In this document: piece by piece, positions 8,707-19,943 of the stretch | Numbering within the stretch: position 1 is the first letter of the stretch | How the letters are laid out: every line of letters begins with the position of its first letter | Virus genome (UHGV): UHGV-1522278 | Origin: a virus | Reading direction: 5' to 3' (one strand) | DNA length: 54,320 nt | Made by a program: the position numbers and the translations under genes | The notes under the pieces: model-generated | What the model was told of the DNA's origin: nothing | Databases searched by the model: none | Seen by the model: the letters and a program-made list of their open reading frames with translations, nothing else

Positions 8707-8961
8707 TCATTCCTCCGGCAACATAACTACATAGACACCACTAAACGCATCAATACGGCAAACAAACCCTTTGCTAATTAATGCGGCGAAGGCATCATGT
8801 ACCGTATGAACAGGAAGTTCACACATTTTTGCTACTTCTTCGCGTGATACGCTTGTCCGCCCCTGGCTATCCGCCGTCTCAGCAAGGGCGATCAAAACTA
8901 GTTTTTGAATCGGGCTGTTAAGTTTTACGTTCCATGCTTTGCTAATTATGTTCATGCTCAT
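8707..8961 (-). CDS. HTH DNA-binding protein, first gene of the leftward early operon
   Basis: 84 aa from the ATG at 8961 with AGGAGA RBS; HTH-like segment SREEVAKMCELPVHTVHDAF. Confidence 0.6.
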   Translation of the reverse strand: MSMNIISKAWNVKLNSPIQKLVLIALAETADSQGRTSVSREEVAKMCELPVHTVHDAFAALISKGFVCRIDAFSGVYVVMLPEE

Positions 8962-9070
8962 CGTGTTTTCTCCTATGGTTAGAGTGAACGCGCTGGCGGG
9001 CATCCAATTAGCATTAGATAGCAGTGACTGACCGCTCAACAGATCCCGCCGTTGCGTGATATTTGTTTTT

Positions 9071-9102
9071 CGCTTCGCAGCGACACCGGATTTTTAAAGA
9101 GC
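9071..9102 (-). promoter_or_regulatory. nut-like site (boxA-like GCUCUUUAA plus hairpin) in the leftward early leader
   Basis: minus-strand reading AGCTCTTTAAAAA then 11 nt then CGCTGCGAAGCG (4-5 bp stem, GCGA loop). Confidence 0.35.
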
Positions 9103-9143
9103 TTTTAAGGTATGTTCCTTTTGTGCTTTCCATTATCTTTTTT

Positions 9144-9159
9144 CTTGCATCCTTGCAAG
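9144..9159. promoter_or_regulatory. operator-like palindrome CTTGCA-tcct-TGCAAG in the divergent immunity region
   Basis: perfect 6-bp inverted half-sites; further half-sites CTGCAAG at 9176-9182 and CTTGCA at 9232-9237. Confidence 0.45.
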
Positions 9160-9267
9160 TATGGACTTACCTTGTCTGCAAGTTTACAGAATGGCGTTAA
9201 CAGGTCAAGGATTGAAAAATACATTTTGTGACTTGCATCAAACTTTTTTAGCTTATAGGGTAGCGAC

Positions 9268-9915
9268 ATGAAAACAAAATGGTATGACTTGGCAAAACAA
9301 CTCATGCGGGCGCAGGGCATGAGTCAGGATTCACTGGCTGATCTCATGGGGATAACAAAAGGCGGCTTGTCGCACTGGCTGAACGGTCGCCGTGAGCCAA
9401 ATCTTGAAGATATTGCGCGGATCATGCGGGCGCTTGGGCGTCGGCAATTCACTGTCACACATGATGGGATGGTCATCGATGATTCTGTTTCTAACACGTT
9501 ACCGGGAGCGCCACCGCGTGATTTAGGCAGTTACCCGGTTGTTGACTGGAAGGACGCAGTAAACAATATGGAAGATGCAAGGCGATCAACATTACCACAC
9601 GTTACAACTAGCGTTATTTGTTCTGATGATAGTTATTGGCTGGTAGCTAAAGGCGAATCAATGAACGCTCCGCAAGGATTGAGTATACCAGCGGGGACGA
9701 TGATACTTGTCGATCCGCACGCGCCAGCTATTGACGGCAAACTAGTTATAGCCCAACTGGAGGAAGGGCAAACTCCTACGTTTAAACAGCTTGTTATTGA
9801 TGGAGGTCAAAGGCTTTTACGTTCACTCAATCCGCTGTATCCACCGATCCCTATGAATCCAGAATCTAAAATCATAGGTGTGGTAGTGGATGCGAAGATC
9901 GTAAACCTGCCATAA
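9268..9915 (+). CDS. cI-like repressor (HTH plus S24 LexA-type peptidase domain)
   Basis: 215 aa; N-terminal HTH (SQDSLADLMGITKGGLSHWLNG); C-terminal S24 motifs GESM and a downstream Lys. Confidence 0.88.
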   Translation: MKTKWYDLAKQLMRAQGMSQDSLADLMGITKGGLSHWLNGRREPNLEDIARIMRALGRRQFTVTHDGMVIDDSVSNTLPGAPPRDLGSYPVVDWKDAVNNMEDARRSTLPHVTTSVICSDDSYWLVAKGESMNAPQGLSIPAGTMILVDPHAPAIDGKLVIAQLEEGQTPTFKQLVIDGGQRLLRSLNPLYPPIPMNPESKIIGVVVDAKIVNLP

Positions 9916-9920
9916 ACACT

Positions 9921-9946
9921 AGCCGCCGAATGGCGGCTTTTCTTTG
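9921..9946 (+). terminator. rho-independent terminator after the repressor gene
   Basis: AGCCGCC-gaat-GGCGGCT followed by TTTTCTTT. Confidence 0.6.
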
Positions 9947-10037
9947 CTAAAAAACACCAAAACGTAAACAGAAAACCATGTTTATCATTTAAATATCAAG
10001 TGCTTATAAAATTTTATAAAAAAGTATACAAAATGTG

Positions 10038-10066
10038 TTGACTCGTGTTTTTACGGGGCGTATATT
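10038..10066 (+). promoter_or_regulatory. near-consensus sigma70 promoter (TTGACT - 17 nt - TATATT) flanked by an inverted repeat
   Basis: -35 at 10038-10043, -10 at 10061-10066; TTGACTCG (10038-10045) and CGAGTCAA (10069-10076) are exact reverse complements. Confidence 0.55.
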
Positions 10067-10108
10067 TCGAGTCAAAAGGAGGAAGCAAGGCAGGGAAAGA
10101 AGGTTACT

Positions 10109-10146
10109 TGCTCTTTAATAATCTGGTCAGCCGCTGGAAGTGCGGC
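10109..10146 (+). promoter_or_regulatory. nut-like site: rrn-type boxA (TGCTCTTTAATAA) plus boxB-like hairpin
   Basis: boxA-like 10109-10121; hairpin GCCGC-tggaagt-GCGGC at 10130-10146, in the leader of the rightward early transcript. Confidence 0.45.
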
Positions 10147-10202
10147 AATTAACGAAGATGATTTTTTATTAAGTATCATCAAGGATATAAGGAGATCAGA
10201 TC

Positions 10203-10493
10203 ATGACAGTTACAATCATGTATGGCAAATGTGACAGTAAACTGAATGCCAGGGAACGCAGAAGAATAAAAAGAGAAAACGAAAGAAAATCATCACCTGC
10301 AATTAATAAAACAGACAATGTGGATAAAGCTATTCGCTTTGCAAACGAGGAAAGATGCAAACCAAATAGCATTAAAGAACGTCGCAAAGGAGCAGTAAAA
10401 TGGTATACGGAAAATGAAAGCGGCAACTACTACCACGCAACGCAACCACGCCATTTAGGGGAAAAACCACTTGATAAAGTCCGTTACCATTAA
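10203..10493 (+). CDS. Arg-rich small protein, candidate N-like antiterminator
   Basis: 96 aa, strong RBS AGGAGA; N-terminal Arg-rich motif NARERRRIKRENERK; first gene after the boxA/boxB-like site. Confidence 0.5.
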   Translation: MTVTIMYGKCDSKLNARERRRIKRENERKSSPAINKTDNVDKAIRFANEERCKPNSIKERRKGAVKWYTENESGNYYHATQPRHLGEKPLDKVRYH

Positions 10494-10523
10494 TACAAAA
10501 TGTAAACAGCCGGAGGTGACGTT

Positions 10524-10646
10524 ATGGTTATTCAGGCGCTCCAATTCAAACTGGCGGTAGCGGAAATGCTTCATGATGCCGAAATGTGGAGCGCCGCGAA
10601 TAAAGCCTTATATATAGTGTTAACAGCGAAGGAGATTAAAGAGTGA
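10524..10646 (+). CDS. small ORF (40 aa)
   Basis: GGAGGTG RBS; stop overlaps the erf GTG start (GTGA). Confidence 0.35.
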   Translation: MVIQALQFKLAVAEMLHDAEMWSAANKALYIVLTAKEIKE

Positions 10647-11284
10647 AAACAGAGTTACACAAAAAACTGTGGACGATTCAGCAAACGCTGAACGCGCCGA
10701 AAAATCAGCGTAATAATTTCGGTGGATACAATTACAGGTCGGCGGAGGATATTTTAGAAGCGGTCAAACCACTGCTTCAAAGTATTACGCTGACTGTAAG
10801 CGATGAAATTGTCCTGATCGGCAATCGCTATTATGTGAAAGCCACTGCGACACTAAGCGACGGTGAGGATGAAATAGCGGTAACGGCTTACGCCAGGGAG
10901 GAAGAAAGCAAGAAGGGAATGGACGCAAGCCAGTTAACTGGCGCGACATCAAGTTACGCGCGTAAATACGCTTTGAACGGGTTGTTCTGCATTGATGACG
11001 CAAAAGATCCTGATACTGATGCTTACGCGAAACAGACAAATCAACAGCCACGCCAGCAGAAAAACCCACCAAAACAACAACCACAGCAGCAGAAAGCGCC
11101 TCCAAATCCTGATGAGGTGTTAGCGCGTTTCTGTGATGCGGCAGCGAAAGCGCAGGACGCTAACAAATTGCGCGAGATCTTCTGGAAGTGCTGGAAGCTA
11201 CTGCCTAAAGATTCAGAGCAGCAACAGAAAGCCAAAGACGTTTATGACATTAGATTAAAAGAGCTTAACGGGGAGATCAGTTAA
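10643..11284 (+). CDS. erf: Erf-family single-strand annealing protein
   Basis: 213 aa; strong similarity to P22 Erf N-terminal domain (LNAPKNQ..FG.Y.YRS.EDILE.VKPLL...DEIVLIG.RYYVKATAT). Confidence 0.88.
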   Translation: MKTELHKKLWTIQQTLNAPKNQRNNFGGYNYRSAEDILEAVKPLLQSITLTVSDEIVLIGNRYYVKATATLSDGEDEIAVTAYAREEESKKGMDASQLTGATSSYARKYALNGLFCIDDAKDPDTDAYAKQTNQQPRQQKNPPKQQPQQQKAPPNPDEVLARFCDAAAKAQDANKLREIFWKCWKLLPKDSEQQQKAKDVYDIRLKELNGEIS

Positions 11285-14478: not shown

Positions 14479-14671
14479 ACAGTATAAAGAATGGAAGATT
14501 CCAGAATCAGCAACAAAGGCAGCGCCCGGAAACTTTTCGGGCGTTTATTTTTATATGGAAGGGAAATGGTATTTCGGCAGCAGGCCGGATCACTATTATC
14601 AAGAAATATGCAAGCCTCATGTGTGGGATATTAAGGAACGCGTGCAAGGTGGTGTAATAGACGAGGTTTAA
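14468..14671 (+). CDS. hypothetical protein
   Basis: 67-aa ORF. Confidence 0.45.
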   Translation: MKFKQYKEWKIPESATKAAPGNFSGVYFYMEGKWYFGSRPDHYYQEICKPHVWDIKERVQGGVIDEV

Positions 14672-14672
14672 A

Positions 14673-14909
14673 ATGGTTAAGAGCTTTTTTAACTGGTTGG
14701 GGGCGTGGCTTTTGGCTACGCTTTTTGTTTTTTTGGTGTTCAGCGGCGGCATCGTCATATTTACGCTGGCTGTGATGTTTGTTACATGGTCAGTACCTGA
14801 GTTTAATGACTTGGGATCTATTCTTACCATAGCCCGCGCTTTATTGGCTGTTAGCTCATTTATTGGTTTTTGCTGGACTGTAGCGCCTGATTGGGGTGAT
14901 GAATGGTGA
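14673..14909 (+). CDS. small membrane protein
   Basis: 78 aa with two predicted TM segments. Confidence 0.5.
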   Translation: MVKSFFNWLGAWLLATLFVFLVFSGGIVIFTLAVMFVTWSVPEFNDLGSILTIARALLAVSSFIGFCWTVAPDWGDEW

Positions 14910-16186: not shown

Positions 16187-16670
16187 CAGGTTATTGGCCT
16201 GCGTTTACGTCGCCGTTTTCGTGATCATCAACCTTATTGTTAACCATTGCGGTCCGTGGGTAATTCCTATCACCACGGTAGCCGTAGTGTGTGTCAATAT
16301 GATGATCCGCGACTTTCTGTTATATGACGGCGGCCTGAAATGGTCGGCTACAACATGCGCCGCCGCTGGCGCAATCACGGTGCTGATAAATTATGACGCA
16401 GGGATGGTGGCAATCGCGTCATTCGTCGCGGTTGTTTCTGGTGCGCTTATATCTGGCGGCGTTTACCGGGTTTTACCTGGTGATTTCGATTCGAAACGCT
16501 GGCCTGCAAATATAGCGTCAGCCATTGGCGATGCGTTGATTTTCCCTACGTTATCGTTTATGGCATTCATGCCGGAAATATCAGCAATGCAATTCATCTC
16601 AAAAATGGCAGCGGTAACGGTGATCACTATCATCATGCGCCGCTATTTCACGTTTGAGGGCAAAAAATGA
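16158..16670 (+). CDS. integral membrane protein
   Basis: 170 aa with 4-5 predicted TM segments. Confidence 0.6.
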   Translation: MTQMKKVTIDRLLACVYVAVFVIINLIVNHCGPWVIPITTVAVVCVNMMIRDFLLYDGGLKWSATTCAAAGAITVLINYDAGMVAIASFVAVVSGALISGGVYRVLPGDFDSKRWPANIASAIGDALIFPTLSFMAFMPEISAMQFISKMAAVTVITIIMRRYFTFEGKK

Positions 16671-17449
16671 GCAAGGGTAAACACTGGTTAAATAATTGGC
16701 TTAGAAGTTGGGTTGTGTGGTCGCTGTACGACGGCAGCGGGTACGCCGTTAAAGATTGGGCGGAAGCAGGATATAAGTGCTATTGCTTCAACTATGACGG
16801 CGCAAATCACGGCGATTATGAAGGCGTTAAAATCATTCATCCGAATATTGAATACGTTAACGTGTGGATTGACAGCCATTTCCTGGTAATGTTCTCCCCT
16901 GAATTGTCTGTTTATCCAGAGCCTGACATTATCTTGGGTTTTCCTCCATGCGACGATCTCGCCGTGTCTGGCGCTCGCTGGTTCGCTGATAAACGGAAAA
17001 AAGATCCTGACTTCCAGGTGAAGGCGGCGAATAGCGCAAAACTGGTAGAAAAACTGGCGGATATGCACAACGTTCCGTGGATGGTGGAAAATCCGGTGGG
17101 AGCACTGTCAACGCTATGGCGCAAACCTGATTTTATCTTCAACCCGTGCGCTTACGGTGGCTACCTGCCTGAAGATGACAAACATCCTGCTTTCCCTGAT
17201 GTTTACCCGCCGCGAGACGCGTACACGAAGAAAACTTGTATTTGGTGCGGCAACGGATTTAAACAGCCGCTTTTTAGACCTGTAGATCTTAACTCTGGTG
17301 ATAACCCTGGGTGGGCGAAAACCGGAGGAAGGACGAAACGAACAAAGATGATCCGCTCACTAACGCCGCGTGGCTTTGCCCGTGCTGTATTCCTGGCTAA
17401 CGACCTGGCCATCAATCGTGCTACGCTCAACCGCGTTTTACCGGACTGA
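16667..17449 (+). CDS. C5-cytosine-methyltransferase-like protein (divergent, short)
   Basis: 260 aa; motif I-like LYDGSGY, PC motif GFPPCDDLAVSG (PCD rather than PCQ), ENV-like MVENPVG; no obvious target-recognition domain. Confidence 0.55.
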   Translation: MSKGKHWLNNWLRSWVVWSLYDGSGYAVKDWAEAGYKCYCFNYDGANHGDYEGVKIIHPNIEYVNVWIDSHFLVMFSPELSVYPEPDIILGFPPCDDLAVSGARWFADKRKKDPDFQVKAANSAKLVEKLADMHNVPWMVENPVGALSTLWRKPDFIFNPCAYGGYLPEDDKHPAFPDVYPPRDAYTKKTCIWCGNGFKQPLFRPVDLNSGDNPGWAKTGGRTKRTKMIRSLTPRGFARAVFLANDLAINRATLNRVLPD

Positions 17450-17608
17450 AATTTACAAAATGGCGTCATTGCGTGATGTGGATCACATAATGGCGCTTTT
17501 TACCTTGTTCTGACGTATCCATTTTGTATACTTCAAACAAGCAAAATGCTCTTTAAAAATCCGGCAGCGCTGAAATGCGTAGAAATCACCTGAAAAGGAG
17601 AGAGCATT

Positions 17609-17785
17609 ATGCCTTTTGATAATTACCAATGGCATGACGACTATGAACGAGAAAGCGTCATGCGTGCAATGTGCAATGTATGCAGCACGAAGAAAGGAGA
17701 CTGCAACGAGTGCAACGAATGTTTAGATCATTGGCTAAAGGCCGGACACGCCGAAAGGCTGAACGAAACAGAGAATCAAAAATAA
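17609..17785 (+). CDS. small Cys-rich protein (58 aa)
   Basis: AGGAGA RBS; Cys cluster CNVCSTKKGDCNECNEC. Confidence 0.4.
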   Translation: MPFDNYQWHDDYERESVMRAMCNVCSTKKGDCNECNECLDHWLKAGHAERLNETENQK

Positions 17786-17799
17786 TCGGGGTGGTTTTT

Positions 17800-18405
17800 A
17801 TGCAAAACCCTAAAAAACCCATAAGACGCCGTTGCAAATGCTGCGGCGTTTTTTTTGAGCCTAAATATCACAATCAAACATGGTGCAGCGATGAATGTCT
17901 GGAAGAACTGAAATTTGATCAGCTATGTCGCGATCGTGAGAAGGCTATGAAGGCTATGGAACGGAAGAAACGCCGTGATAGCCAGCGTGAGGAACGCAAC
18001 CGGAAGCGGAAGCAGTTAAATCCGCGCAGCTACTGGATTAAACAGGCGCAAAACGTTTTTAACGCTTATATACGCGAGCGTGACGCGCTATTGCCGTGCA
18101 TATCATGCGGGACTTACTACGGTGAGCAATGCGGGTGGGATGCAGGCCATTACAGGACGGTAGCCGCCGCCGGACACCTTCGCTTTAACGATGATAATTG
18201 TCACAAGCAATGCAGGCACTGCAACCAGACACTAGACGGCAACATCGGAGGGTATCGCCCTGCGCTGATTCGAAAAATTGGCCTCGCCAGGGTAGTAGCT
18301 CTGGAGAACAACAACGAAACTCACAAATGGACGATAGAAGAATGCAAGGAAATCATAAAAGTCTATCAGGCTAAATTAGACGCCTTAAGGAGAAAGGCAG
18401 CATGA
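17800..18405 (+). CDS. ninG: NinG/Rap-like recombination protein
   Basis: start at the ATG at 17800; Cys-rich NinG-like sequence (CKCCGVFFEP...WCSDEC, CISCG, CHKQCRHCN). Confidence 0.8.
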   Translation: MQNPKKPIRRRCKCCGVFFEPKYHNQTWCSDECLEELKFDQLCRDREKAMKAMERKKRRDSQREERNRKRKQLNPRSYWIKQAQNVFNAYIRERDALLPCISCGTYYGEQCGWDAGHYRTVAAAGHLRFNDDNCHKQCRHCNQTLDGNIGGYRPALIRKIGLARVVALENNNETHKWTIEECKEIIKVYQAKLDALRRKAA

Positions 18406-18815
18406 ACGAATATACATTTAGCCTACCTTACCCGCCATCGAATAACCGCTATTACCGACATTCGCGCGGTTTTCACTATATAAGCAAAGTTGGGAAGGAA
18501 TATCGGGAACAAGTAAGAGACATCATCGAGCTATTAAATTTAAACATTAACCTACCTTGCCGACTGGCAATCGCCATCTATGCCGCGCCGCCGGATAACC
18601 GGATCAGAGATCTGGATAATATCCCTAAATGCCTTTTTGATAGCCTTACCTATGCCGGATTTTGGAAGGATGACGGGCAAATTGACTCAATAAAAATTGT
18701 CCGCTGCCGGAAGGTAAAAGGCGGACGCTTGTTTATTAAGATCCGCGAACGCGGCGACCTGCTACCGGATATTGACGAATACGCGACGAATACGTGGGGG
18801 TTACAATGGAGCTAA
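18402..18815 (+). CDS. rusA: RusA-type Holliday junction resolvase
   Basis: 137 aa; RusA-like N-terminus LPYPPSNNRYYRHSRG and DLDNIPK acidic motif. Confidence 0.85.
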   Translation: MNEYTFSLPYPPSNNRYYRHSRGFHYISKVGKEYREQVRDIIELLNLNINLPCRLAIAIYAAPPDNRIRDLDNIPKCLFDSLTYAGFWKDDGQIDSIKIVRCRKVKGGRLFIKIRERGDLLPDIDEYATNTWGLQWS

Positions 18816-19042
18816 TAAACATTGTTGTTAAATGTACTCAATCAAGCGTCGATTTTTTCACTGAAGGTAAAAAATATTCAGGTTTTATAAAGCATGGGTG
18901 CTTTGCTTTCATTCTACAAGACGATCTTGTATCTGATTTCGACGACGCCGACGCATGGCGATTAGTCCAGTATTTCCCGTCAAAAAATGAGTATTTTTTG
19001 CAGGGTCATTTTAAAACTAGGTTTAAGGTGGTAGAGAAATGA
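18806..19042 (+). CDS. hypothetical protein
   Basis: start at the ATG at 18806 with GGGGG RBS. Confidence 0.45.
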   Translation: MELINIVVKCTQSSVDFFTEGKKYSGFIKHGCFAFILQDDLVSDFDDADAWRLVQYFPSKNEYFLQGHFKTRFKVVEK

Positions 19043-19221
19043 AAAACGAAATTAAAGATCTGCAAATAGATATTCAGCGCGATGAGCATGATTTAGAAAC
19101 GGTCCGACAAATCCAGGCTTTTCATATGCGCGAATTGCTTGCATTGAAAGAGCTTGAGAGAAAGTTAGTTCAGTCTATTTCTGATCGTAAACACCTTATT
19201 GCTCGTTACGGGGGCAAGTAA
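19039..19221 (+). CDS. hypothetical protein (predicted coiled coil)
   Basis: 60-aa ORF. Confidence 0.45.
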   Translation: MKNEIKDLQIDIQRDEHDLETVRQIQAFHMRELLALKELERKLVQSISDRKHLIARYGGK

Positions 19222-19943
19222 TGAATCTGGAATCTATTCTCAAATTCCACTTCCCAAAATCACCGCGTTTATCAGATGAAAGCCGGGGCACGTCCCCGGA
19301 TGCACTTAATACTACGGATGCACTAACAGCAGCAGGCATGGCGCAATCGCGCGTAGAGCTTGGTTATAGCGCTTTTTTAGGGAAGATGGAACTATCACAA
19401 GCCGAAAAACATAAGGCCGTAGTTTTGCTTACAGAGCGTTTAAGGACTATGGCAAAAGATTATGAATACGTTATGGAACTGGACGAGGCCAAACGCAATG
19501 ATCTTATTATTCTTGTTGCCGTTTTCGCGTTTCGGGATTATTGCCAAAGCGCCGCGACGGAAAAAACTTGCCCGGAGTGCGGCGGATATAAATTTACGTT
19601 TGACGACTACGGAGAAAAACACCTTTGCAAAAAATGCAAGGGGCATGGGACAGTTCGCAATCATTGTAAACAATGCAAGGGCCGTGGCGAAGTACCGGAT
19701 AAAGCAGCCAGTGAAGCGGCGGAAATGCCAGTGTTCAAAACGTGCCAGCATTGCGGCGGGCGCGGGTACTCGCGTTTCCCTGTAGATCTTGTACGGCAGG
19801 CGGTTAATCAGCTTGTTTTTCCGGTAAGCCGATCAACATGGTGGAAAAAGTACCGGGCTTTCTATGAAGACGCCATTGCTGAATTGTTCAAAGAAGAGGC
19901 GCTGGCAGATAACGAAATTAAAAGAGTGACGCGGGGTGAATGA
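19221..19943 (+). CDS. DnaJ-type zinc-finger protein (4 x CxxCxGxG); possible Q-like late regulator
   Basis: 240 aa; CPECGGYK, CKKCKGHG, CKQCKGRG, CQHCGGRG repeats; sits where Q would be after ninG/rusA. Confidence 0.55.
   Translation: MNLESILKFHFPKSPRLSDESRGTSPDALNTTDALTAAGMAQSRVELGYSAFLGKMELSQAEKHKAVVLLTERLRTMAKDYEYVMELDEAKRNDLIILVAVFAFRDYCQSAATEKTCPECGGYKFTFDDYGEKHLCKKCKGHGTVRNHCKQCKGRGEVPDKAASEAAEMPVFKTCQHCGGRGYSRFPVDLVRQAVNQLVFPVSRSTWWKKYRAFYEDAIAELFKEEALADNEIKRVTRGE

Follow-up and report, generated by a model that had tools for sequence, protein, structure and literature searches.

Early antitermination in coliphage mEp021 has been attributed to Gp17, an N-lambda-like protein (PMC11893012, citing Valencia-Toxqui et al. 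2023, Arch Virol 168:92), for which three targets are described: nutR1 ahead of gp17, nutL ahead of the repressor gene, and nutR2, which follows a cytosine methyltransferase gene (PMC11893012). Phages of the mEpimmI group are Nus-dependent (Negrete-Mendez et al. 2025, PMC11893012). Residues R17, R19, R20 and R24 of the arginine-rich motif of Gp17 are conserved, and among the three published sites the closest resemblance is between nutL and nutR2, nutR1 varying most (PMC11893012). An N-type antitermination system of this kind is therefore already known, that of mEp021 having been published in 2023 and that of the mEpimmI group in 2025. In another paper citing Gp17, the protein served only as a His-tag control.

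The locus described here lies in a 54,320-nt stretch of viral DNA (UHGV virus genome UHGV-1522278), the whole of which is referred to as the window. Positions 8900-10700 share 92-94% DNA identity with the six sequenced phages mEp515, mEp013, mEp044, mEp554, mEp021 and mEp010, and up to 97% with E. coli prophages. The annotated features of the mEp021 and mEp013 records agree with the window, with the same repressor, promoter and gene order. A Rep021-type repressor and the early-region layout of the mEpimmI group are present, the 92-94% identity extending across repressor, leaders and gp17. By sequence the window falls in the mEpimmI (mEp021-like) group of coliphages, and the region very probably serves immunity and early control in an mEp021-like temperate coliphage with a lambda/P22-style N antitermination system. 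An earlier note, made from the letters of the DNA, had proposed N/Nus-type antitermination in both early operons; group membership, the 97.9% identity to Gp17 and the literature (PMC11893012) support that proposal. The system is real but already known: experiments on a 98%-identical relative demonstrated it in 2023. Antitermination, three functional nut sites and Nus dependence, as reported for the mEp021 protein, would extend to the window by likeness. An N/nut module in a non-lambdoid phage background was thus correctly recognisable from sequence alone. The control elements and genes that frame the locus are as follows.

9181..9208, minus strand: candidate early leftward promoter, TTGACC, 16-nt spacer, TAAACT (consensus scan, 9/12 positions).
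9268..9915, plus strand: CI-type repressor (HTH_3 and Peptidase_S24 profile matches), between the two early promoters.
9921-9938: the repressor gene's own terminator (terminator scan, fold).
10038..10066, plus strand: putative early rightward promoter, TTGACT-17-TATATT (consensus scan, 10/12 positions; predicted start near 10073).
10203..10493, plus strand: gp17-like gene, predicted 96-aa N-like antiterminator (97.9% to mEp021 Gp17; phrog_271).
19221..19943, plus strand: Q-type late antiterminator gene (Pfam Antiterm PF03589, E = 4.5e-30).

The near-consensus rightward promoter reported by the earlier note was recovered and is kept in the alignment with mEp021 and mEp013, consistent with a promoter function at 10038..10066. 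The -10 element of the leftward candidate is conserved in the intergenic alignment and points to a possible promoter at 9181..9208. The 96-aa ORF comes first after the rightward promoter and kil-like, erf and ssb genes come next, an order also seen in the PL operons of lambda and P22; in its genes, the operon called rightward in the earlier note corresponds to the PL operon of lambda. The Q gene has a counterpart in the mEp021 record ('putative late gene regulator Q') and is the likely downstream beneficiary of early read-through. Lambda follows the same logic of boxA, spacer and boxB, with an arginine-rich protein encoded first in an early operon adjoining a CI-type repressor, kil-like and recombination genes following N and a Q gene downstream. 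In lambda nutR follows cro; in the window the nut site of each leader lies ahead of the first gene, and no gene resembling cro was seen. A 39-aa ORF (9014-9133, minus strand) that overlaps nutL was considered as Cro and set aside because it lacks family support and has the nut site within it.

The earlier note had likened an arginine-rich motif in the 96-aa ORF to that of N proteins, and the analysis of the protein is in agreement. The motif, NARERRRIKRENERK, spans residues 15-29 and contains R17, R19, R20, R21 and R24, which include all the conserved arginines named for Gp17 (PMC11893012). The helical register A-x-x-R-R-x-x-(R/K)-R is found as A16..R19 R20..K23 R24, which aligns with A15..R18 R19..R22 R23 of P22 and, by eye, with A3..R6 R7..R10 R11 of lambda; N15, A16, R17, R20 and R24 are invariant across the protein family. 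Seven mEp-group phages have Gp17 proteins 95-98% identical to the 96-aa protein. The family phrog_271, 'anti-termination protein N-like', matches residues 2-95 (E = 8.8e-12) and takes in lambda N (4e-23) and P22 gp24 (7e-40), each of the three over its full length. The Pfam model PF25694 N_peptide scored 17.0 bits, below its 27.9-bit gathering cut-off, and 16 of 18 family members gave sub-threshold matches only.

The N-terminus is shared with P22 gp24, 11 of 20 residues being identical in the pattern MTV(T)I(M)YGK...NA(R/K).RR, and D.V.KAI..A forms a second block common to the two proteins, while their C-terminal halves are unrelated in sequence. Within the family the C-terminal block KWY.ENESGNY.HATQPR.LGE.PLDKVRYH is highly conserved. 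BLASTP of the ORF against lambda N revealed no similarity, and the pairwise likeness is confined to RRKGAVKWYTE here against ERKNQRTWYSK in lambda; in hhalign the alignment is limited to this short WY(S/T) block and residues 75-85 of lambda N (E = 0.024, probability 2%). Against the single sequences, hhalign gave low probabilities, 2% for lambda N and 9% for P22 gp24. No N-related match was obtained in a PDB sequence search with the protein alone or with the family profile, and NCBIfam returned nothing relevant to the protein. A tblastn search of 50,697 phage records with the ORF found nothing beyond the seven mEp-group phages, and a search of 5.8 billion proteins returned only 49 close clusters, the named ones all from E. 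coli, with no bridge to P22 or lambda N. A genome-contig scan with the protein gave no confirmed locus, the pattern method having probably missed the E. coli prophages found by the DNA search.

Three nut sites were found in the window.

9103-9070, minus strand: nutL (boxA, spacer and boxB).
9091..9103, minus strand: nutL boxA AGCTCTTTAAAAA, core invariant in 43 relatives.
9070..9083, minus strand: nutL boxB hairpin UCGC-UGCGAA-GCGA (or UCGCU-GCGA-AGCGA), -6.5 kcal/mol.
10109-10146, plus strand: nutR1 (boxA, spacer and boxB).
10109..10121, plus strand: nutR1 boxA TGCTCTTTAATAA, rrn type with CUUUA.
10122..10129, plus strand: nutR1 spacer TCTGGTCA, its TCYGG part common to all three sites.
10130..10146, plus strand: nutR1 boxB hairpin GCCGC-UGGAAGU-GCGGC, -10.1 kcal/mol.
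17547..17580, plus strand: nutR2, with boxA TGCTCTTTAAAAA, spacer TCCGGCA and boxB GCGC-UGAAAU-GCGU, upstream of ninG/rusA/Q.

Two of these sites had been proposed in the earlier note, and both proved to be at the nutR1 and nutL positions; the third, nutR2, lies outside the coordinates which that note covered and was missed. As claimed, the boxA at 10109-10121 has a single difference from UGCUCUUUAACAA, with which the rrn boxA plus spacer begins (PMC2724277), and the boxA-like word and hairpin assigned to the minus strand at 9071-9102 were located as the 9-mer GCTCTTTAA at 9102-9094 and the hairpin at 9083-9070. The sites have the published relative positions (upstream of gp17, leftward before the repressor, and after the methyltransferase gene) and are syntenic with the mEp021 annotation; nutR2 lies between the methyltransferase homologue and ninF/ninG and fits the published description. 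They are probably the published nutR1, nutL and nutR2, matched by position and description rather than by the published sequences. A 13-mer with up to two mismatches occurred five times against 3.7 expected, which on its own is not unusual. The exact 9-mer GCTCTTTAA occurred three times against 0.47 expected, only at these sites in the window, and the 17-nt boxA-plus-spacer motif GCTCTTTAAHAATCYGG gave three matches against 0.00 expected by chance. All three copies of the motif are on the transcribed strand of early leaders, each with a small hairpin 7-8 nt further on. Rfam families at gathering thresholds were absent over the whole window.

The comparison with nutL and nutR of lambdoid phages suggested by the earlier note showed the order boxA to boxB to be shared with lambda and P22, the boxB stem-loop following boxA by 7-9 nt in the RNA and an early promoter preceding both. 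Phage P22 has two nut sites, and the window system has three against two in P22 and lambda. In P22 nutL, boxA CGCTCTTTAAC is followed after 9 nt by GCGCUGACAAAGCGC, a striking likeness to nutR2 of the window, GCTCTTTAA..GCGCUGAAAUGCGU, and the P22 boxB stem GCGCU/AGCGC closely resembles those of nutR2 and nutL. The loop of P22 is a 5-nt GACAA closed by U-A and that of lambda a GAAAA/GAAGA pentaloop, whereas here a 4-nt GNRA lies between U and U/A, with GGAAG in nutR1. The spacer starts AAAAU, like that of lambda nutL. The lambda boxA CGCUCUUA lacks the extra U (PMC2724277). The E. coli rrn boxA is nearly identical, UGCUCUUUAACAA in rrn against UGCUCUUUAAUAA here; the rrn hairpin lies upstream of boxA and no phage protein is needed (PMC2724277), whereas here the hairpin follows boxA and comes together with an N-family protein.

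The hairpin at 10130-10146 described in the earlier note is present, and in the RNA fold check that it suggested both leader hairpins folded, at -10.1 (z = -2.4 for a 25-nt piece) and -6.5 kcal/mol. Within 50 nt of context the hairpins do not exceed shuffles in stability (z -0.0 to -0.4); with folding energy in context unremarkable, their reality rests on comparative evidence. Nut sequences of relatives were gathered by blastn-short. The hairpins are kept across about 50 relatives, that of nutR1 in 44 of 44 close relatives, and divergent relatives have in its place fully compensated stems that carry a UGAAAU/UGAAAA loop. Compensated stems include GCCGC/GCGGC, GCUAC/GUAGC and UGCAC/GUGCA, among others, and the outer pair of the nutR2 stem is G-U, A-U or C-G. 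Among 18-26 distinct nut sequences, 96-98% of cells in the boxB stems are paired and two to three of the five stem pairs show both-sided changes, a covariation reached by none of 500 shuffles; sliding the pairing partner drops pairing to 17-63%. In the loop, U, G and A never vary, and the loops GCGA, GUGA, GCAA, GAAA and GGAA all fit the sequence pattern GNRA, which is also kept by the nutL variants GUGA (L006) and UGCAAU (L038). The nutR1 loop of the window, UGGAAGU, is 7 nt long, and those of nutL and nutR2 are 6 nt long. The two loops seen by the earlier note look different, yet one rule, U-GNRA-U/A, covers all three boxB loops, on stems of 4-5 bp. The invariant loop and covarying stems indicate that the boxB hairpin is under selection.

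Terminator-like hairpins were found along the rightward transcript.

14521..14555, plus strand: terminator-like hairpin and T-run inside the rightward early operon; predicted T6 in mEp013.
14699-14735, plus strand: second terminator-like hairpin of the rightward early operon (fold).
17462..17502, plus strand: terminator-like hairpin and U5, 45 nt upstream of nutR2; -20.9 kcal/mol, z = -3.95.
17823..17856, plus strand: terminator-like hairpin and U8, ~245 nt downstream of nutR2, within the 5' end of ninG; -17.2 kcal/mol, z = -3.7.

The hairpins at 14521 and 14699 fold at -16.3 and -14.3 kcal/mol, and the first of these may be read through by the action of Gp17. The hairpin at 17462..17502 corresponds to TERM_4 annotated in mEp021 and shows one compensatory C-G to A-U change in a relative (L024); that at 17823..17856 is the predicted T8 of the mEp013 record. 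Leftward terminators were weakly predicted and lie within ORFs. A separate promoter before nutR2 (TTGTTC, 16-nt spacer, TATACT, 17505-17532) was considered and set aside, its -35-like part being variable among relatives and unflagged by the scan.

The short palindromes might instead be DNA-level operators, or chance inverted repeats beside a chance boxA-like word. Stems of only 4-5 bp, folding energies in context no better than shuffles and the chance-level frequency of the loose 13-mer speak in favour of this. The 17-nt motif, three against none expected and always on the transcribed strand, argues against chance, and stems that vary freely in sequence while pairing and an asymmetric loop are kept are the signature of an RNA hairpin, unlike a DNA operator; this explanation is highly improbable. 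Equally improbable is an exclusion factor acting as Nun does. Nun of HK022 arrests or terminates transcription at lambda nut sites, and an arginine-rich protein that bound boxB RNAs of its own phage or of rival phages could do likewise. An N-family arginine-rich protein in the N position would suit that role, as would a conserved C-terminal block unlike the C-terminus of lambda N save for the WY(S/T) motif. Against it, the early operons of the phage itself carry three cognate nut sites ahead of its terminators and of Q, which would be self-defeating for a terminator protein, and the gene lies behind a repressed early promoter and a terminator rather than in a prophage-expressed unit; antitermination is, moreover, what is reported for Gp17 (PMC11893012).

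Slightly more credible, and still very unlikely, is antitermination of the rrn style, in which boxA alone recruits NusB/NusE/NusA/NusG (and SuhB) and the hairpins and the 96-aa protein are dispensable or otherwise used. Against it, complexes of the rrn type mainly suppress Rho-dependent termination, whereas the operon contains hairpins resembling intrinsic terminators. The boxA sequences give it some footing: all three are of the rrn type with the extra U (CUUUA), and nutR1 boxA, which in relatives is TGCTCTTTAACAA, CGCTCTTTAACAA or CGCTCATTAACAA, is exactly TGCTCTTTAACAA in several. An rrn-type boxA binds Nus factors better, and a consensus boxA in lambda enhances N activity (PMC2724277). The order of the elements is nonetheless that of a lambda nut, boxA before the hairpin, rrn having boxB before boxA (PMC2724277). 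The selection on the hairpin, the N-family protein with its conserved arginine-rich motif encoded next to nutR1 and the credit given to Gp17 in the literature (PMC11893012) likewise stand against boxA acting alone, and N-type antitermination is the preferred reading.

Under N-type antitermination, RNA polymerase would initiate at the two divergent early promoters around the CI-type repressor gene and transcribe each leader through a nut site, nutR1 (10109-10146) or nutL (9103-9070). We infer that the rrn-type boxA GCUCUUUAA would bind NusB/NusE(S10) and the short spacer (AAUCYGG...) NusA, while the U-GNRA-U/A loop of boxB would be the target of the arginine-rich helix (residues about 15-29) at the N-terminus of the Gp17-like protein. 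Contacts with NusA and RNA polymerase would fall to the remainder of the protein and make elongation resistant to terminators. Rightward transcription would in this way continue past the hairpins resembling intrinsic terminators at about 14.5, 14.7 and 17.46 kb. At nutR2 the complex could be loaded anew, shortly ahead of the 17.83-kb hairpin and of ninG, rusA and the Q gene, and on the leftward side polymerase modified in the same manner would run through the replication genes. A more specific version is offered tentatively and, with its three parts taken jointly, is rather doubtful: that one arginine-rich helix reads both the true GNRA tetraloops closed by U-A or U-U in nutL and nutR2 and the 7-nt UGGAAGU loop of nutR1, in contrast to the pentaloop of lambda and P22; that nutR2 is a dedicated reloading site between two intrinsic terminators, ~7.4 kb into the operon, needed to reach Q; and that the rrn-consensus boxA gives part of the read-through independently of Gp17. 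Parts of this version may already be covered by the 2023 paper.

Compared with mEp021, the window has the same three nut sites in the same relative positions together with the same repressor, promoter and gene order, and, as published, nutR1 varies most and the closest pair is nutL and nutR2. The window, mEp013, mEp044 and mEp554 have a short rightward leader that lacks the 215-nt insertion (containing the small gp16 ORF) found in mEp021 between promoter and nutR1; Rfam searched at a permissive threshold with this insertion gave chance-level sRNA matches only. The nutR1 boxA is TGCTCTTTAATAA in the window against CGCTCATTAACAA in mEp021. Public records label the 96-aa protein 'hypothetical protein' in nearly all genomes and leave the nut sites unmarked, and for this reason the coordinates, the U-GNRA-U/A loop rule and the covariation table could serve in annotating mEpimmI phages.

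The early-control region consists of two leaders separated by a CI-type repressor gene. The earlier note had described a near-consensus promoter, a boxA with a hairpin and a 96-aa ORF with an Arg-rich motif in the rightward direction, and a boxA-like sequence with a hairpin on the minus strand of the leftward leader; each was recovered, and a further unit was located beyond the range of that note.

Features of the early-control region and the third nut site
8707-8964, minus: first leftward gene, encoding an 85-aa winged helix, downstream of nutL; a replication protein gene is next
9083-9070, minus: nutL hairpin UCGC-UGCGAA-GCGA, 7 bases past boxA, fold -6.5 kcal/mol
9103-9091, minus: nutL boxA AGCTCTTTAAAAA, by sequence reading
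9208-9181, minus: leftward promoter-like site TTGACC-16-TAAACT, by consensus scan, upstream of the nutL pair
9268-9915: CI-type repressor gene (HTH_3 and Peptidase_S24) with its own terminator
10038-10066, plus: rightward early promoter-like site TTGACT-17-TATATT, 10/12 consensus positions
10109-10121, plus: nutR1 boxA TGCTCTTTAATAA, by sequence reading, downstream of the promoter-like site
10130-10146, plus: nutR1 hairpin GCCGC-UGGAAGU-GCGGC, 8 bases past boxA, fold -10.1 kcal/mol
10203-10493, plus: 96-aa N-like ORF; its ribosome-binding site is good and residues 15-29 read NARERRRIKRENERK
17547-17563, plus: nutR2 copy of GCTCTTTAAHAATCYGG, the same 17-nt boxA-plus-spacer motif as in nutL
17567-17580, plus: nutR2 hairpin GCGC-UGAAAU-GCGU, following the 17-nt motif

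The 85-aa product matches phage replication initiators over their N-terminal part (phrog_4617, E = 1.7e-21) rather than Cro, and no cro-like gene was seen in either early leader (8707-9267 examined). A 39-aa ORF (9014-9133, minus) overlaps nutL and resembles an ORF that the mEp013 record lists as a CDS; because it has no family support and contains conserved nut RNA, it is unlikely to be a gene. Both divergent early promoters have the 12-nt sequence ACAAAATGT(A/G)TT immediately before the -35 hexamer (9218-9229, minus; 10028-10039, plus); the two copies form an inverted pair, 92% complementary, and may serve as an operator half-site or UP-like element.

Matches to the 13-mer boxA with at most two mismatches were not unusual in the window (5 versus 3.7 expected), whereas the exact core GCTCTTTAA occurs in three copies versus 0.47 expected and the extended motif GCTCTTTAAHAATCYGG in three versus 0.00. 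The third copy, with its hairpin, occupies 17547-17580 (plus) between a methyltransferase homologue and ninF/ninG; the boxA-spacer-hairpin units are therefore three paralogues, all on the transcribed strand.

Relatives were collected by scanning viral contigs with the 96-aa protein, yielding 42 loci of 72-100% protein identity, and from divergent family members, yielding 4 further loci of 69-73% identity. All three sites are kept in every locus of both sets, and no relative compared has leaders without the hairpins; loss of the hairpins in close relatives was what the earlier note had named as refuting its reading. Stem sequences vary while pairing is kept. The nutR1 stem is GCCGC/GCGGC in the window and mEp021, UGCAC/GUGCA in relative locus L043, GCUAC/GUAGC in L050 and L051, GCAC/GUGC in L048 and UCGC/GCGA in L049. 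In nutR2 the outermost pair varies between G-U, A-U and C-G. Most sites have the loop U-GAAA-U or U-GAAA-A; nutL has U-GCGA-A (with variants GUGA and GCAA), and the common form of nutR1 has U-GGAAG-U. A single rule covers these loops: the closing C-G pair never changes and is followed by U, a GNRA-type tetranucleotide and finally U or A. When pairs were counted on aligned distinct nut sequences, 96-98% of boxB cells were paired and 2-3 of 5 stem pairs had changed on both sides; none of 500 shuffles matched the observed covariation, and sliding the 3' partner lowered paired cells to 17-63%. Such a pattern marks an RNA hairpin maintained by selection.

The 96-aa ORF is 97.9% identical to Gp17, the product of mEp021_17. 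Residues 2-95 match phrog_271, 'anti-termination protein N-like' (E = 8.8e-12), which also matches lambda N (4e-23) and P22 gp24 (7e-40). The Pfam N_peptide score was 17 bits, below the threshold of 27.9, as for 16 of 18 relatives. No pairwise similarity of the ORF to lambda N was found, the exception in profile comparison being RRKGAVKWYTE versus ERKNQRTWYSK. The family is narrow: clustering at 90% identity leaves 49 clusters, none less than 63% identical to the query. Those with a named source are from E. coli, and every one is called 'hypothetical protein'. Conservation peaks in the arginine-rich motif, where N15, A16, R17, R20 and R24 never vary, and in two further blocks, D.V.KAIRFAN in the centre and KWY.ENESGNY.HATQPR.LGE.PLDKVRYH towards the C-terminus.

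According to PMC11893012, Gp17 was shown experimentally by Valencia-Toxqui et al. 2023 (Arch Virol 168:92) to be the N-lambda-like early antiterminator of mEp021. Two of its three target sites lie upstream of a gene, nutR1 of gp17 and nutL of the repressor gene; the third, nutR2, is downstream of a cytosine methyltransferase gene. The same source reports a conserved A-rich boxB loop, full conservation of Gp17 R17, R19, R20 and R24, dependence of mEpimmI phages on host Nus factors, and greatest likeness between nutL and nutR2 with nutR1 most variable. The window's units occupy exactly these relative positions and show the same similarity pattern, and we infer that they are the nut sequences printed in the 2023 study. 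DNA identity of the region is 92-94% to mEp515, mEp013, mEp044, mEp554, mEp021 and mEp010. Prophages in 35 complete E. coli genomes match it at up to 97%. The order cytosine methyltransferase, terminator, NinF, NinG, RusA, Q of mEp021 is that of window 16667-19943. The ORF at 16667-17449 (plus), placed where mEp021 has a 'putative DNA cytosine methyltransferase', had no Pfam or NCBIfam match at E <= 0.01-0.1, leaving that annotation unsupported by profile searches. N/Nus-type antitermination in both early operons, as the earlier note proposed, is supported by the 97.9% identity to Gp17 and the activity reported for Gp17. The system is already known, having been published for mEp021 and the 48-genome mEpimmI group; relative to the earlier note, what is added is nutR2, a single rule for the loops, covariation as evidence for the hairpins, the P22 resemblance of protein and RNA, and the observation that public annotations still label the protein hypothetical.

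That the units are DNA operators or chance palindromes is excluded by covariation and strand consistency. Antitermination by boxA alone, in the style of rrn operons, is unlikely since the hairpin is under selection and comes after boxA, not before it, and an N-family gene adjoins the site. It is likewise unlikely that the N-like protein acts as a Nun-like terminator, since the phage carries the cognate sites in its early operons, upstream of essential genes of its own.

For N-type antitermination, analogy with lambda and P22 (general background and PMC2724277) suggests that boxA would bind NusB/NusE and the spacer NusA, that the arginine-rich helix would bind the boxB loop and the remainder of the protein would hold NusA and RNA polymerase. 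The rightward transcript would have four candidate terminators to override (14521, 14699, 17462 and 17823).

Terminator-like hairpins and late control gene
14521-14545, plus: terminator-like hairpin, -16.3 kcal/mol
14699-14725, plus: terminator-like hairpin, -14.3 kcal/mol
17462-17497 (to 17502), plus: strong terminator-like hairpin with U5, -20.9 kcal/mol, z = -3.95; corresponds to TERM_4 annotated in mEp021
17823-17852 (to 17856), plus: strong terminator-like hairpin with U8, -17.2 kcal/mol, inside the ninG 5' end
19221-19943, plus: Q-type late antiterminator gene (Pfam Antiterm, E = 4.5e-30) with a zinc-ribbon/DnaJ-CXXCXGXG-like segment

The 17462 hairpin has one compensatory change, C-G to A-U, in relative locus L024. 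Hairpins 17462-17502 and 17823-17856 bracket nutR2, with ninG, rusA and the Q-type gene downstream; a reloading role for nutR2 would fit its position between the last two hairpins. Given the Q-type gene, the phage has both N-type and Q-type antitermination.

Both protein and RNA sites resemble those of P22 in sequence. The N-terminus MTVTIMYGK..NARERR compares with MTVITYGK..NAKTRR of P22 gp24 (11/20 identical), and DNVDKAIRFAN with DRVTKAISLAG. P22 nutL reads CGCTCTTTAAC, 9 nt, GCGCUGACAAAGCGC; its boxB stem is close to the window's, whose loop is one base shorter. The window's sites share with rrn and P22 the boxA type with an extra U (PMC2724277). The lambda nutL and nutR sites consist of CGCTCTTA, a spacer, then GCCCUGAAGAAGGGC or GCCCUGAAAAAGGGC, and the AAAAU that starts the lambda nutL spacer is the same in the window's sites. 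The lambda/P22 PL gene order N, kil-like, erf, ssb is also mirrored. Directly after the N-like gene, a 40-aa ORF (10524-10646, plus) has a sub-threshold Pfam Lambda_Kil match (E = 2e-4) and a strong match to an unnamed PHROG.

In mEp021 and most relatives a 215-nt insertion with a small gp16 ORF (2633-2847 of L001, the mEp021 locus) separates the conserved promoter from nutR1. The window has no such insertion (its place would be between about 10095 and 10096), nor has mEp013; this short-leader variant is already among published mEp genomes. The end of the insertion coincides with the 5' edge of the nutR1 boxA, which therefore reads TGCTCTTTAATAA in the window and CGCTCATTAACAA in mEp021. Within the insertion are GC-rich hairpins and a degenerate boxA-like word, GCACTTTAAAAAATCAGG in mEp021 and GCACTTTAAAAATCAGG in L050 and L051; Rfam gave no match to the insertion. 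Relative locus L002 has a Gp17 100% identical to the window's and an identical nutL region, yet a nutR1 of the long-leader type (boxA CATTCTTTAACAA), a combination that points to recombination (mosaicism) inside the immunity region.
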